Below, in pieces: positions 1 to 7,837 of a stretch of DNA of 7,837 bases. Every line of letters starts with the position of its first letter. Within the stretch, counting starts at the first letter, position 1. Source of the DNA: a virus (taxonomy: Duplodnaviria; Heunggongvirae; Uroviricota; Caudoviricetes); IMG/VR virus record IMGVR_UViG_2711768019_000001; one strand, written 5' to 3'. The notes beneath the pieces were generated by a model, which saw nothing but the letters and a program-made list of their open reading frames with translations, was not told the DNA's origin and searched no databases. The position numbers and the translations under genes are program-made.

Positions 1-98
1 AGGGACAGCTGATAGAAACAGAAGCCACTGGAGCACCTCAAAAACACCATCATACACTAAATCAGTAAGTTGGCAGCATCACCTCATTCGTCTGTTCC

Positions 99-1832: not shown

Positions 1833-2615
1833 TTATGCTGCCCTTTTCATTGCGAATGGAACGCGAACAAACACGATCTCTTTATAGCAGCGGCAGTTTG
1901 GCAGCTCGCCCGCGTGGCCGGTCATGCCGTCCAAAGTTGGAGGTGAATCCCAGCGGACGAATTTACCTTTCATGTGATCGTGGGAATCTCGGACATCGCC
2001 ATCATCGGCTGTACGCCAAATATAACCATCCGAGCCAATAGCTATCGCTCGGGCCATATCCAGCGCGCCCGTTGCTCTTCCCAGTTCCGTTCGGGCAATC
2101 AGATCGGCCCTAGACTTAGCAACATCGCCGGTAGATGCAATCTCTTTAGCAAACTGCTCCGCCCGACCACCGGTGACAACAGCCTCTATCGCTTTGTTCT
2201 GGATGTCGTACACCCTGTCTGCGGCCTCGAGAGGCAGAGATTTGATGTACTTGACCTGTTCGGCGATGATGGATTGCATCACCTGGCCCACAGGAGCGCT
2301 TTCCACAAGATTGCGGAGCTCGCGACTGATGTTCTTGCTGTGTTGCCGCCAAACTTTCTCGTTCTGCCGGGTTAGGTCCGCAGTAAAGTTTTCCGCGACC
2401 TTTGTCGCCCAGGGGGTGATGATTTCACTGTAACGCTCCAGCGCCGCAATAATTTCCGTGATACTGTCATTTGAACCATCGTAGCGACCATTTACGATGT
2501 CTCCGACCGCCCTCGCTATCCTGCGTAGGCTGGTTCGATACCGGATTTCCGCCTGACGGCTCCTGCGGTTCGTCATCAGGTTCGCCGATGCCGGGCGGCG
2601 CTTCATCTTCGGCAT
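1833..2615 (-). CDS. phage head morphogenesis protein, Mu F / SPP1 gp7 family (minor head protein)
   Basis: 260-aa intact ORF directly downstream of the portal gene, which is the conserved gp6-gp7 arrangement. C-terminal region carries a Cys-x-Cys motif (ELPNCRCYKE) as recalled for this family. ATG at 2613-2615 has GAGGA 8 nt upstream. The start is uncertain because this ATG makes a 149-nt overlap with the portal 3' end; later in-frame ATGs exist at 2604-2606 and 2574-2576. Confidence 0.8.
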   Translation of the reverse strand: MPKMKRRPASANLMTNRRSRQAEIRYRTSLRRIARAVGDIVNGRYDGSNDSITEIIAALERYSEIITPWATKVAENFTADLTRQNEKVWRQHSKNISRELRNLVESAPVGQVMQSIIAEQVKYIKSLPLEAADRVYDIQNKAIEAVVTGGRAEQFAKEIASTGDVAKSRADLIARTELGRATGALDMARAIAIGSDGYIWRTADDGDVRDSHDHMKGKFVRWDSPPTLDGMTGHAGELPNCRCYKEIVFVRVPFAMKRAA

Positions 2616-3933
2616 TCTCGATGTCCTCGTCGGTAATGGATGCCCCGATGCCGGTTACGTCAGAATTTTCTCGCAAATCAGTCATAGCGGCTTTCAGTGT
2701 CATCAGACCATCACCCAGCGCCGTACTGATTGCGTTGGTGGTGTTTAACGCCACCGTTGAGCGATCGACATCAGACATTTGCCAGAGCGGGTTAAACTCA
2801 AACGTGAAATCGTCCGGCAGCGGCTTGCCAAGTTCCGAACGATGCATGATGTCCAGTATCCGCCGCACCGGAAGACGTAAACGCCTCTCCTGCAACGAAC
2901 TGATGCGATCGTAATAGTTGGCAAGGTCTGCATCACCGGTAGAAAATCCTTTCGGGGACTGTCCGAACAACCGCACCAGTGGGATACCAACAGCGCCACT
3001 AATCTGTTCTACAAACTGCGAAAGGATGTCATCCAGACCACTGAAGCTGTACTGATGGGTTTCAAACTTATCCCGCGAGTCCATGAGCGTCATGCCTTCA
3101 TTACTCTGGAACTGTCGAATCAGGTCGATATTCTTCAGCAACGCTTCATACGCAGGACCACCAAGTGCGATAAGCTCGCGTAGCTTCTCCACGCTGTAGG
3201 TACGCAAATGCGCCTTGTAGACCAGCTGCGCCGCGCCGACAGTAGCGCTGTCGAACGCGGTAAGACGATCCCAGATACGCTCTACAACCGACATTCCCCA
3301 TTCGTTCTCGGTCATCTTCTGCTGAAATGGCAACGTGACGCCATCAAAGCGAATCAGGCGACTGTGATGAATGCGCCAGGCAGGAATTCCCGTTGCTGTG
3401 GTCACCACATCGTAAAACTCAGGTTTACCCAGGTCCGGCCCCATATCTTTAATGCGGCGGGTCAGTGCCGGGTCGACCATCCAGCGGTCGAGCGGGAGAA
3501 TCCCCTTAAACTTGCCCTTACCGATGGTTTCGGGTCGCAGCGGGGTCATTGGTGCCTACCCCTCAATCATGATGAAACCCACCGCGCCGCCGTAGAGGCG
3601 CGACCATTTCAGCACGTCATTCAGCGCATCCCAGATTTGCAACTCATCCAGTTGTGATTCGAGAATGCCACGATCTTTTGCATCAATTTCCGAAGTGATG
3701 CGAATGCCTTTGCGGGTCATATCATCCGGGATAGCATCGACTGCTTCGCCGATGATCTAGGATGAACGATAGGACCATTCCACCAGCATGCGGTTACGAC
3801 TGGTGAAATTAGCCCGGTAGGTGGATGCTGAGTGCTGGTTAGGTGTCTGCATCCCTACGCGGGCAATAAAATTCTCATAACCATCAGCTGTGGCCTGCAC
3901 AGTTCGCCGCAGGGCTTGTTTGTTTCGTGCCAT
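2467..3933 (-). pseudogene. phage portal protein gene (SPP1 gp6-like), single 489-codon frame interrupted by two in-frame TAG codons at 3757-3759 and 3556-3558; longest uninterrupted segment is 2467-3549
   Basis: Minus-strand ATG at 3931-3933 overlaps the terL stop TGA (3933-3935) by one base, a typical coupled start. Translation gives MARNKQALRRTVQATADGYENFIARVGMQTPNQHSASTYRANFTSRNRMLVEWSYRSS, then TAG, then 66 sense codons (IIGEAVDAIPDDMTRKGIRITSEIDAKDRGILESQLDELQIWDALNDVLKWSRLYGGAVGFIMIEG), then TAG, then AP followed by the 360-aa ORF MTPLRPETIGKG...WFK ending at TGA 2467-2469. All three pieces are in the same frame with no indels. Acidic C-terminal tail and position between terL and the MuF-like gene support a portal. 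Typed pseudogene because the sequence as given cannot make full-length protein without stop suppression. Confidence 0.8.
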
Positions 3934-5363
3934 CAGGCCTGTCTCCCCAGCTGTTCCCAGATATCCAGCGATGTATCGATTGGCGCGAAGGCCATAATGA
4001 ATGCATCAGCAACGTTTGGTGACGGTATCTCGCGTTTTGCGAGGTCTTTTTTACTTTCGACCATCACACGTCCGTTACGGTCGAAATCACGATGAGGTGT
4101 TGTCAGTTCCAGTTTCAGCTTTTCAAGCAACGGACAACGAGAATCTATGCTGATCAGCTCATCCACAGGATACTGTTCTCCGTTGTTAATGGCGTTAAAC
4201 GTATTTCTGAAACGGTCAGCCACCAGCCACCATGCCTGAGCCTTAAGATTTGCGAAAAAGTCTTTGTTGGGGATGCCGTTGTACTCGTCATCTGGCTCAT
4301 GCACACCAGCACCGGCGTTAAACCTCTGGTAATTCACACGTCGCGCGTATGCGTTCTCGCTCTTCCGGTCAGCGTTAATTTCAGAGAATTTAGCACCGGC
4401 AGACGCACCAACACCGATAGAGTCGTAAACAATATCTGCTTCACGCTCCAGCGCCGCCTGATAAGTACGCTGGCAGCTCTTCAGTAATTCATCTTCTTTG
4501 GCCTTCCATTCGTCGGCCCAGAAAACAACGGATCCGTGACGGTAAACGTTAGCGCACTTATCTGTACCACTGTCAGCCACGTCAAAGCCAATACGCTTTC
4601 TTCCACTGGGTTCGAAATTTAACGTTTTGTGCGCATCCACTGCGGCTTCTATCCAAGACAGTTTGATGATTGCCGCATCATCATCAGACTCCGGAACGCC
4701 CTCATACACATGTTTAAAACCATCCGGATCACGGCGTCGCGCCGCGTCGATAACCTTAAGCATGGTGTCAGACAGAAACGGATTTTCGTCATAGTTAATT
4801 TTGCGGATGAGAGTGCCTTCGGGCGGATCAACAACGAAGTTGCGCCAGACGAAATCAGTAACAAGTCCGGGGTTGAATATGAACCAGCATTCCGAACCCT
4901 CTTTACGGATCGTTGGCTCCAGAATTTTCCACTGGTATTCCGTCAGTGCGTGGGCTTCTTCCAGCCACAACACATCGATCCCCTCCAGTGACTTAATTTC
5001 TTCGATGTTGCGCCATAATCCATAAAAAACAAATTCCGAGCCAGTAACCCGGTTAATGATTTTGTTGTTCAGAATACGGAAACGGTGCCGCAGACCAAAC
5101 CTGTCTATCTGAATTTTGAGCAGGGTATACACCGACTCTTCGATTTTATTCTGGATCTGACGGGCACAACAAAAACGCAGGGTGTATTTATTCGACAGAA
5201 ATATGGCAATGCCAGCGGCATCCCATGATTTTGACGATGACCGACCACCATAAAGCACTTTGTTACGTGCCCGCATAGTCCAGAAACTACGTAAAGCCGG
5301 ATTCAGCGTCGGTTTGGATGTCAGAGTAGAAGTCATTGAGGTCACGCTCTCCATTGCCATCAT
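3933..5363 (-). CDS. terL: terminase large subunit, PBSX/SPP1-type (N-terminal ATPase, C-terminal nuclease)
   Basis: Six-frame ORF 3933-5444. Walker A-like motif YGGRSSSKSW near the N-terminus and Walker B-like VLWLEEAH, with a long C-terminal domain typical of terminase nuclease. Stop TGA at 3933-3935. Start most likely an internal ATG (5361-5363, 5352-5354 or 5334-5336) rather than 5444, which would overlap terS by 158 nt; AGGT lies 5 nt upstream of the ATG at 5363, GGAGAG 11 nt upstream of the ATG at 5336. Exact start is uncertain. Confidence 0.9.
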   Translation of the reverse strand: MMAMESVTSMTSTLTSKPTLNPALRSFWTMRARNKVLYGGRSSSKSWDAAGIAIFLSNKYTLRFCCARQIQNKIEESVYTLLKIQIDRFGLRHRFRILNNKIINRVTGSEFVFYGLWRNIEEIKSLEGIDVLWLEEAHALTEYQWKILEPTIRKEGSECWFIFNPGLVTDFVWRNFVVDPPEGTLIRKINYDENPFLSDTMLKVIDAARRRDPDGFKHVYEGVPESDDDAAIIKLSWIEAAVDAHKTLNFEPSGRKRIGFDVADSGTDKCANVYRHGSVVFWADEWKAKEDELLKSCQRTYQAALEREADIVYDSIGVGASAGAKFSEINADRKSENAYARRVNYQRFNAGAGVHEPDDEYNGIPNKDFFANLKAQAWWLVADRFRNTFNAINNGEQYPVDELISIDSRCPLLEKLKLELTTPHRDFDRNGRVMVESKKDLAKREIPSPNVADAFIMAFAPIDTSLDIWEQLGRQA

Positions 5364-6195: not shown

Positions 6196-6248
6196 AAGTC
6201 GTATCACGGTTAAATAGCAAAGAAAAATTCACAGAAGGAAAGACATTG

Positions 6249-6758
6249 ATGGAGTGGATAAATGCTTTGATGAACTATTTTGTACTTCATCCATATCGCC
6301 TATGGGGGCTTCTTTTTATAATAGCGTTCACAAAATCCACTTTACTCATTTCGGCGATATTGCCACCAGCATCAATTATGATGGCCACTGTAATTACAGT
6401 CAGCAAGACGACTCTTTCACCATGGGAAGCTGGAATCACGGTCATGAGTGGCGCATGGTGCGGTACTATCGTTAATTACCATCTTGGTATAATAATTGGG
6501 CATATCCCTCAACTTGCATGTATAATATCAAGCCGTTCCAATACAATAGAACGGGTTCGCCTTCAGTTGCAAAATAACTCTGTGTCAATACTTTTCACTT
6601 CGCGCTTTATCGCCGTGCTGCGTTATATTGCTCCTTTGGTGGCAGGAATGTTGCAACTTCATCCAGTGAAAGTGTATACAGTGAGTCTGATTTCAGCTGC
6701 TAGCTGGTCAGCACTTTATGTTGGTAGTTTTAGCTTCGTGTTGCCTTTTTTTAGCTAA
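6249..6758 (+). CDS. DedA/YqaA-like (VTT/SNARE-associated family) polytopic inner-membrane protein, 169 aa; moron-type accessory gene
   Basis: Only convincing plus-strand gene. ATG at 6249 (the six-frame ORF begins one codon earlier at TTG 6246) with AAGGAA about 8 nt upstream; stop TAA at 6756-6758. Translation is strongly hydrophobic with several predicted TM segments and recalled similarity to E. coli YqaA (ILPPASIMMATVI vs LLPGNSEVVLVAML; SGAWCGTIVNYHLG vs MGNSLGGLTNVILG). Visibly more AT-rich than the flanking structural genes (roughly 40% vs roughly 53% GC by eye) and transcribed against the phage late operon. Confidence 0.6.
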   Translation: MEWINALMNYFVLHPYRLWGLLFIIAFTKSTLLISAILPPASIMMATVITVSKTTLSPWEAGITVMSGAWCGTIVNYHLGIIIGHIPQLACIISSRSNTIERVRLQLQNNSVSILFTSRFIAVLRYIAPLVAGMLQLHPVKVYTVSLISAASWSALYVGSFSFVLPFFS

Positions 6759-6846: not shown

Positions 6847-7095
6847 CTACCCCCCAAGGCATTGGATCCTGATGTACTCCTGAAGCATTCTCAATGCTGT
6901 CTGGTCGCTGATGATTCCGTCCCGGATACCGAGAACGTTTCGTCCAGCAACTGGAGAGAGTTCGACGGTGGCATCATTGCCCATGCCGGAGGCGCTGGAG
7001 GTTTCGGCTGAGGATGGCACAGGGCATTTTCCTTTGACGAGCACCCGACCACCATTATCAAGCTTGCGCCGAAGAGCATCATTTTCAGCTTTCGC
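6847..7095 (-). CDS. Rz: Rz-type i-spanin, C-terminal part only (5' end lies in the N gap)
   Basis: Translation from the gap edge reads AKAENDALRRKLDNGGRVLVKGKCPVPSSAETSSASGMGNDATVELSPVAGRNVLGIRDGIISDQTALRMLQEYIRIQCLGG. AKAENDALR matches the lambda Rz motif (ADAKAENDALRDD) and the C-terminus resembles P22 gp15 (YLQEYIRSQCLK), both recalled from memory. Stop TAG at 6847-6849 followed one codon later by TAA. Confidence 0.8.
   Translation of the reverse strand, partial: AKAENDALRRKLDNGGRVLVKGKCPVPSSAETSSASGMGNDATVELSPVAGRNVLGIRDGIISDQTALRMLQEYIRIQCLGG
6891..7082 (-). CDS. Rz1: Rz1-type o-spanin lipoprotein, embedded in the +1 frame of Rz; true start probably just inside the N gap
   Basis: Translation MMLFGASLIMVVGCSSKENALCHPQPKPPAPPAWAMMPP... 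has a lipobox (VVGC) and a proline-rich segment matching lambda Rz1 (LVVVGCTSKQ...CVKPPPPPAWIMQPP, from memory). Upstream in-frame codons before the gap read RKLKMML, like the lambda Rz1 N-terminus MLKLKMML. Stop TGA at 6891-6893. Confidence 0.8.
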   Translation of the reverse strand: MMLFGASLIMVVGCSSKENALCHPQPKPPAPPAWAMMPPSNSLQLLDETFSVSGTESSATRQH

Positions 7096-7630
7096 NNNNN
7101 NNNNNNNNNNNNNNNNNNNNNNNNNNNNNNNNNNNNNNNNNNNNNNNNNNNNNNNNNNNNNNNNNNNNNNNNNNNNNNNNNNNNNNNNNNNNNNNNNNNN
7201 NNNNNNNNNNNNNNNNNNNNNNNNNNNNNNNNNNNNNNNNNNNNNNNNNNNNNNNNNNNNNNNNNNNNNNNNNNNNNNNNNNNNNNNNNNNNNNNNNNNN
7301 NNNNNNNNNNNNNNNNNNNNNNNNNNNNNNNNNNNNNNNNNNNNNNNNNNNNNNNNNNNNNNNNNNNNNNNNNNNNNNNNNNNNNNNNNNNNNNNNNNNN
7401 NNNNNNNNNNNNNNNNNNNNNNNNNNNNNNNNNNNNNNNNNNNNNNNNNNNNNNNNNNNNNNNNNNNNNNNNNNNNNNNNNNNNNNNNNNNNNNNNNNNN
7501 NNNNNNNNNNNNNNNNNNNNNNNNNNNNNNNNNNNNNNNNNNNNNNNNNNNNNNNNNNNNNNNNNNNNNNNNNNNNNNNNNNNNNNNNNNNNNNNNNNNN
7601 NNNNNNNNNNNNNNNNNNNNNNNNNNNNNN
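7096..7630. other. assembly gap (535 N) within the lysis cassette
   Basis: Uninterrupted run of n. The six-frame ORFs drawn through it (poly-X) are artefacts. From typical gene sizes (inference) the gap should contain the endolysin body and the Rz and Rz1 starts. Confidence 0.99.
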
Positions 7631-7729
7631 ACCATCGTTACCACCTGGGCCAGTGATTAACACAGATGCTATAGCAACAGCCCCGCCACCAATAGCAACT
7701 GCAACAGCCTTGCGTAATGATGGCGACAT
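7631..7729 (-). CDS. SAR (signal-arrest-release) endolysin, phage 21 R21-like, N-terminal 33 codons only (remainder lies in the N gap)
   Basis: ATG at 7727-7729 with GAGAGGTG 6 nt upstream. Translation [33 protein letters not shown] is a basic N-terminus followed by a Gly/Ala-rich weakly hydrophobic segment, the hallmark of SAR domains, and closely resembles my recollection of the phage 21 R21 N-terminus ([33 protein letters not shown]). The downstream Rz/Rz1 pair fits a lysis cassette. Confidence 0.7.
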
Positions 7730-7783
7730 TATTCACCTCTCGCAGCCTTACTAGACTGGCCCCCTGAATCTCCAGACAACCAG

Positions 7784-7803
7784 TATCACTTAAATAAGTG
7801 ATA
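7784..7803. promoter_or_regulatory. inverted repeat TATCACTTA-AA-TAAGTGATA (9-bp arms, 2-bp spacer) in the leader upstream of the endolysin gene; candidate operator for a dimeric DNA-binding protein
   Basis: Read directly from the sequence. It sits in an 84-nt stretch (7754-7837) with stop codons in all three minus-strand frames. On the minus strand it overlaps a weak sigma70-like promoter candidate: TTAAGA (7810-7805), 17-nt spacer, GATACT (7787-7782). TATCAC/GTGATA half-sites recall lambdoid repressor operators, but the half-site spacing differs from lambda cI sites. Confidence 0.3.
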
Positions 7804-7837
7804 GTCTTAATACTAGTTTTTAGACTAGTCATTGGAG

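Follow-up and report, generated by a model that had tools for sequence, protein, structure and literature searches.

The 108 nt upstream of the endolysin gene at the right end of the window (the whole stretch of 7,837 nt that was analysed, from an IMG/VR tailed-phage record) consist, with a probability of about 97%, of the last 22 nt of a holin gene and the left end of a 1,331-bp IS2 that split this prophage holin, rather than of a leader. A complete IS2 would have transposed into a class II holin gene of the phage 21 pinholin family, duplicating the target CTTAC and pushing the holin body 1.3 kb away, to the far side of the element and outside the window. The prophage appears to be a decayed remnant in a Shigella sonnei-type chromosome, with IS2 being one of several lesions. 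The window itself holds 86 nt of IS2, and the remainder of IS2, the other CTTAC copy, and the holin body were seen in identical or related sequences.

The holin–IS2 junction

The visible 5′ part of the endolysin gene, 33 codons of the SAR type (rrrD/phage 21 R), lies at 7631–7729 on the minus strand with its ATG at 7729, as originally predicted, and the remainder of the gene is hidden by an N mask at 7096–7630, across which coordinates and ORFs are unreliable. In complete E. coli genomes, megablast places the visible part at 100% identity on a gene annotated as ‘lysozyme RrrD’. In L006, an identical genome, the full endolysin has 165 aa and gives matches to PF00959 (E 1e-43) as well as to the structures 4ZPU (RrrD) and 3HDE over residues 1–165 (E 3e-104 and 2e-103, respectively), the latter of which we take to be the phage 21 lysozyme. 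These full-length matches include its Gly/Ala-rich N-terminus, as in SAR endolysins of the R21 type, and release of the enzyme is predicted from the sequence. The Rz/Rz1 genes of the same minus-strand lysis cassette end at 6847. It should be noted that the masked run measures 535 nt, against 617 nt between identical flanks in L006 (4118–4734); either masking altered the length, or 82 nt over the endolysin/Rz overlap are deleted in the source.

Next to the endolysin start, at 7729–7751 on the minus strand, lies the 3′ remnant of a class II (phage 21 S-type) holin, 100% identical to the ends of the intact holins in L001 and L010. It reads gt AAG GCT GCG AGA GGT GAA TAA, that is, (R)K-AARGE-stop, and its TAA shares the final A with the endolysin ATG (a TAATG overlap), as in intact cassettes, where the lysozyme start is overlapped by the holin stop (L007 and L010). 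The claim that no holin gene directly precedes the endolysin therefore holds at the level of ORFs, and there are indeed stops in the endolysin frame upstream of the ATG, but 7730–7751 is a genuine holin 3′ end.

Homology breaks at the end of this remnant. When 7631–7837 was compared by megablast with 5,426 complete E. coli genomes, query positions 1–121 (window 7631–7751) matched alone, at 100% identity, over features annotated as ‘lysozyme RrrD’ and ‘class II holin family protein’, and no record among these genomes covered at least 80% of the query. In an alignment with the intact locus L001, the two sequences are identical through 7751 and unrelated past that position. The other side, 7752–7837, gave on its own 20,770 matches in 4,678 of the 5,426 genomes (median 3 and maximum 41 per genome), located on chromosomes and plasmids and inside varied interrupted genes, including an autotransporter gene and a phage tail gene. 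None of the 5,426 complete E. coli genomes or 50,697 phage records spans both halves of the junction, so that prophages of E. coli do not generally carry the insertion. An exact 32-mer across the junction (CTCGCAGCCTTACTAGACTGGCCCCCTGAATC), used as a probe, retrieved two IMG/VR contigs and nothing in species-representative genome contigs, a miss that we attribute to representatives without this Shigella lineage. Closed chromosomes were reached via the 406-aa head protein encoded at 609–1829, and four of them (L006, L008, L009, and L012, the last being CP019689 of S. sonnei 75/02) show 100% identity across all 7,302 unmasked bases of the window, junction included. Moreover, S. sonnei assemblies with this insertion appear to be very numerous.

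These occurrences bear on the suspicion of an assembly chimera at the junction, with a contig end falsely joined to a repeat. The window does start and end inside IS elements (83 nt of IS1 and 86 nt of IS2), which are typical break points of short-read assemblies. However, the same junction is present in several independently assembled closed chromosomes and in two IMG/VR contigs, where a full-length IS2, a matching 5-bp duplication, and, past the element, the rest of the holin go with it, leaving such an artefact next to no probability.

In L003, L004, and L006, the element at the junction is exactly 1,331 bp long, beginning with TAGACTGG… and ending with …GGGGCAAATCCA. Its ends are 42/41-bp imperfect inverted repeats with TA and CA tips, of which the left one (IRL) alone is inside the window, and its ORFs, outside the window, encode a 121-aa protein with the Pfam domain HTH_Tnp_1 and a 301-aa protein with rve, rve_3, and HTH_21. 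In the same three sequences, CTTAC flanks both ends of the element: one copy of this target-site duplication (GTAAG in the opposite orientation) is at 7747–7751 on the plus strand, and the second lies beyond the window, past the right end of IS2. Five base pairs is the usual length of the target duplication made by IS2. Removal in silico of the element and one CTTAC yields an ORF of 68 aa with the same sequence as the intact L010 holin; it matches PF04971, ‘Bacteriophage P21 holin S’ (E 1.3e-35), and an upstream in-frame ATG (MYQMEK…) provides it with a 71/68-aa dual start. IS2 sits after codon 63 of the 68-aa form (codon 66 of the 71-aa form), with the last five sense codons and the stop remaining by the endolysin, while the 5′ fragment reads into the right end of IS2 for 28 extra codons to give a 91-aa PF04971 ORF in L006 and L011.

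The original prediction had offered two possibilities, a displaced or missing holin and a regulatory or foreign insert. Extension to the right, as afforded by the identical closed genomes, located the remaining 63/66 codons on the far side of IS2, so that displaced holin and foreign insert prove to be one and the same event, and the idea of a missing holin is contradicted by the 91-aa ORF. The regulatory option, namely a genuine leader or endolysin 5′ UTR in a cassette that has no holin or keeps it elsewhere by design, would agree with the lack of an endolysin-frame ORF upstream of the ATG and with the abundance of palindromes in this stretch. Nevertheless, identity to intact holin–endolysin loci stops exactly at the 7751/7752 boundary, the other 86 nt are the end of a multi-copy mobile element found in unrelated contexts, the holin is restored by in silico excision, and the palindromes fall on the published operator and promoter of IS2. 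Conservation of the stretch along with the endolysin was not observed among the intact relatives, all of which have holin coding sequence there and lose similarity at 7751. A leader has already been refuted by the breakpoint and the target-site duplication, and its probability is negligible.

One of the IMG/VR contigs, L003, carries an additional difference: the A-run after the holin start (~4700–4715) is one base shorter (ATGGAAAAATATC vs ATGGAAAAAATATC), shifting the frame, through either another lesion or a sequencing error at the homopolymer. The Rz of this contig is 93% identical to that of the window, and the same junction is thus found in a somewhat different backbone.

CTAG sites and palindromes in the IS2 left end

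The first 86 nt of IS2 (IS3 family) occupy 7752–7837 at 100% identity to IS2 copies, with the transposase genes on the plus strand, opposite to the lysis genes. In L002, where the IS2 copy splits an autotransporter pseudogene, a CDS annotated as ‘IS3-like element IS2 family transposase, programmed frameshift’ begins about 5–6 nt past the 86-nt match, and the orfA ATG comes 5 nt past the window end in L002, L003, and L006. The IS2 copy at this junction has T for A two bases past the GGAG motif (GGAGTACAGATG vs GGAGAACAGATG in L002) and differs from other copies at 2 to 7 positions over 1,331 bp.

The left inverted repeat spans 7752–7793 on the plus strand (42 bp, outer tip TA), as delimited by a gapped alignment with the 41-bp right end that contains one indel. 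The published lengths are likewise 42 bp for IRL and 41 bp for IRR, and IRL is the transposase-binding end that serves as recipient when figure-of-eight structures and minicircles form (PMC3299598). According to the same study, transposase protects IS2 residues 39–42 (TTAA) and 43–48 (ATAAGT), the OrfA repressor docks on TAAATAA, and TGAT at base pairs 48–51 constitutes the first four bases of PIRL, a weak extended −10 promoter that drives orfA/orfAB (PMC3299598). The window reads TTAA ATAAGT GAT at 7790–7802, and the published residues match when IS2 base 1 is set at 7752, with T48 shared by the two motifs. The site of OrfA (InsA) repression and transposase protection (residues 39–48, TTAAATAAGT) is consequently at 7790–7799, the docking sequence TAAATAA at 7791–7797, and PIRL, the weak native promoter reading inward to orfA, at 7799–7807 (TGAT at 7799–7802), all on the plus strand; the hexamer of PIRL is probably TAGTCT at 7802–7807. 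By motif position, GGAG at 7834–7837 (plus strand) is the orfA ribosome-binding site. Between the −10 and this motif, 7812–7837 of the plus strand is a probable orfA 5′ UTR that contains ACTAGT at 7812 and 7824 and GACTAGTC at 7823. The ACTAGT pair and GACTAGTC (7812–7830) most likely form the first bases of this UTR, whose start is placed from the position of the −10. The ACTAGT pair is not known to have a function inside IS2.

All of the motifs that had drawn attention to this region, the CTAG tetranucleotides at 7751, 7813, and 7825, the two ACTAGT sites, and GACTAGTC, are present, and their clustering exceeds chance, with three CTAG in the 87 nt at the right end vs three in the remaining 7,216 unmasked nt. 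When the segment was shuffled by mononucleotide, three or more CTAG arose in 0.3% of trials (P = 0.003), and with the remaining window as background, such a count would be reached with P ~7e-6 per 87-nt stretch. That remainder is itself depleted in CTAG, as base composition predicts 28 and a second-order Markov estimate 5.8, against the three observed. The complete IS2 has just two CTAG, both within its first 86 nt (the ACTAGT pair), and the third, at 7751, is a chance product of the junction, which it spans (C/TAG) by combining the last C of the target duplication with the terminal TAG of IS2. A perfect 9+9 palindrome (TATCACTTA-aa-TAAGTGATA) at 7784–7803 is centred on the OrfA operator, and an imperfect 13-nt palindromic pair lies at 7802–7827. 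The CTAG sites and palindromes are thus working parts of IS2 (IRL, OrfA operator, and the orfA 5′ UTR with its Shine–Dalgarno sequence), not features of the lysis genes. RNA folding of the region from ACTAGT to GACTAGTC gave an MFE of −11.8 kcal/mol, which is no better than that of shuffled sequences (−10 ± 2.4; z −0.75); this removes a structured RNA leader from the evidence, and no structural role is assigned to the ACTAGT region for this reason.

The statement that 7754–7837 contains stops in all three minus-strand frames was mistaken, as one frame is open throughout (PMTSLKTSIKTITYLSDTGCLEIQGAS) and belongs to a 64-aa ORF at 7832–7638. As a candidate for a small lysis protein, this ORF was rejected: it starts inside IS2, antisense to the IS2 5′ UTR, its first 27 codons belong to IS2 and recur with every copy of the element, and it overlaps the endolysin gene out of frame.

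Probable consequences for the lysis cassette

With the insertion in place, the holin would have lost its last five residues (AARGE) and gained 28 residues encoded by the IS. The endolysin adjoins the left end of IS2 because the IS2 genes face opposite to the lysis genes. To judge from this arrangement, the cassette is most likely uncoupled and silent, since 1.3 kb of antisense IS2 would cut off the endolysin and the spanin genes (Rz/Rz1) from any late promoter.

A contrary effect would follow if IS2 acted as a mobile promoter, with its end driving holin-independent expression of the SAR endolysin and the spanins, and IS2 fusion promoters are in fact known to activate neighbours, for example, ampC, acrEF, and neoR (review PMC9330008). 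The outward −35 of these fusion promoters resides in the right end, IRR (PMC9330008), whereas the endolysin adjoins the left end, at which the sole promoter described, PIRL, is weak and directed inward, away from the endolysin. In addition, a consensus promoter scan of IS2 and its flanks in L003 returned 0 sigma-70-like sites on either strand, with weak or non-consensus sites lying beyond the reach of such a scan. Expression from the IS end is, on these grounds, extremely unlikely.

Somewhat different in kind is the suggestion, prompted by the apparent abundance of S. sonnei assemblies with the insertion, that it amounts to more than neutral decay, either fixed for its disarming of the lysis cassette or giving the host a domesticated module for holin-independent lysis or vesiculation. 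In the domesticated version, the module could comprise a holin with a 28-residue IS-encoded tail and an SAR endolysin made from a cryptic minus-strand start in the left end of IS2. We consider this very unlikely.

Just upstream of the holin, at 4762–4788 on the minus strand of L003, there is a strong terminator-like hairpin with a 10-bp stem, six GC pairs, and a T-run, which may be a late-operon terminator acted on by Q antitermination.

Prophage decay and relation to known systems

About 12 kb of one remnant contains IS1, IS2, IS110-family, and other IS3-family insertions; capsid and tail genes are deleted there, and the portal gene has acquired nonsense mutations. The IS110-family element (398-aa transposase, PF01548/PF02371) is located in L006 at ~1008–2457, ~10–15 nt upstream of the first ATG of the holin, inside a G-rich run, and a further IS3-family element lies upstream of it. 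As the IS110-family element sits upstream of the holin besides IS2, the lysis cassette carries at least two separate IS insertions. With several disabling lesions in the cassette, lysis of the host by this prophage remnant is very improbable.

The portal gene (2467–3933, minus strand) has two in-frame amber stops, at 3757–3759 and 3553–3555 (TGG to TAG and CAG to TAG). Relative to the intact 488-aa portal of L007/L010, it shows three nucleotide differences, two of which are nonsense, a proportion that is striking if decay was neutral. A gene at 6246–6758 on the plus strand, opposite to the phage late genes and located between Rz and the small terminase gene, encodes a membrane protein of 170 aa whose domain is of the VTT/DedA type (PF09335, E 9e-14); it is present in intact and decayed relatives alike and looks like moron-type cargo.

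At the left edge, window positions 1–83 are the terminal 83 nt of IS1 (reverse complement GGTGATGCTGCCAACTTACTGATTTAG…), an identity that we presume from the terminal repeat and from the adjacent gene in L005, which has IS1 Pfam domains. In the identical genomes, these 83 nt are repeated ~4 kb off in inverted orientation, and IS1 truncates the prophage 4 nt inside the major capsid gene, after which chromosomal genes follow. In 3,923 of the 4,653 collection blocks holding the neighbouring gene, this gene is on contigs of 5–10 kb. The window is probably a short-read contig broken at repeats, with IS1 at its start and IS2 at its end, and the holin is out of sight because the contig broke at the repeat.

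The locus, a prophage gene broken by an IS in a Shigella-type genome rich in such elements, is a textbook case of little biological weight; it is also already known, in that public Shigella genomes annotate an IS transposase beside the lysozyme gene. For phage biology, the sole point of note is a lysis cassette disabled in several places. For the reading of sequences, when CTAG and palindromes cluster at a sequence edge, beside a gene that misses its usual neighbour, they should first be tested as an IS terminal repeat and as a contig break at a repeat.

Compared with IS2 of E. coli and Shigella, the element agrees in every property tested, namely identity, length, terminal repeats, 5-bp duplication, orfA/orfB with a programmed −1 frameshift, and operator and promoter positions, and there is no difference of substance. 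The cassette has the same gene order as that of phage 21 (S21 pinholin, R21 SAR endolysin, and Rz/Rz1) and as essD-rrrD-rzpD of DLP12, sharing a PF04971 holin with a dual start (MYQMEK…), the TAATG overlap, an RrrD-like endolysin, and a Phage_lysis (Rz) gene after it. It differs from both in that IS2 interrupts the holin five sense codons ahead of the stop and, in the full genomes, an IS110-family element lies just upstream of the holin start. A holin–endolysin pair of the phage 21 type is obtained only with IS2 removed in silico, and the holin so restored is predicted to be of the pinhole type. The cassette is therefore a disrupted copy rather than a variant architecture, and with respect to the IS-driven prophage decay of Shigella genomes, this locus is typical and shows no difference.
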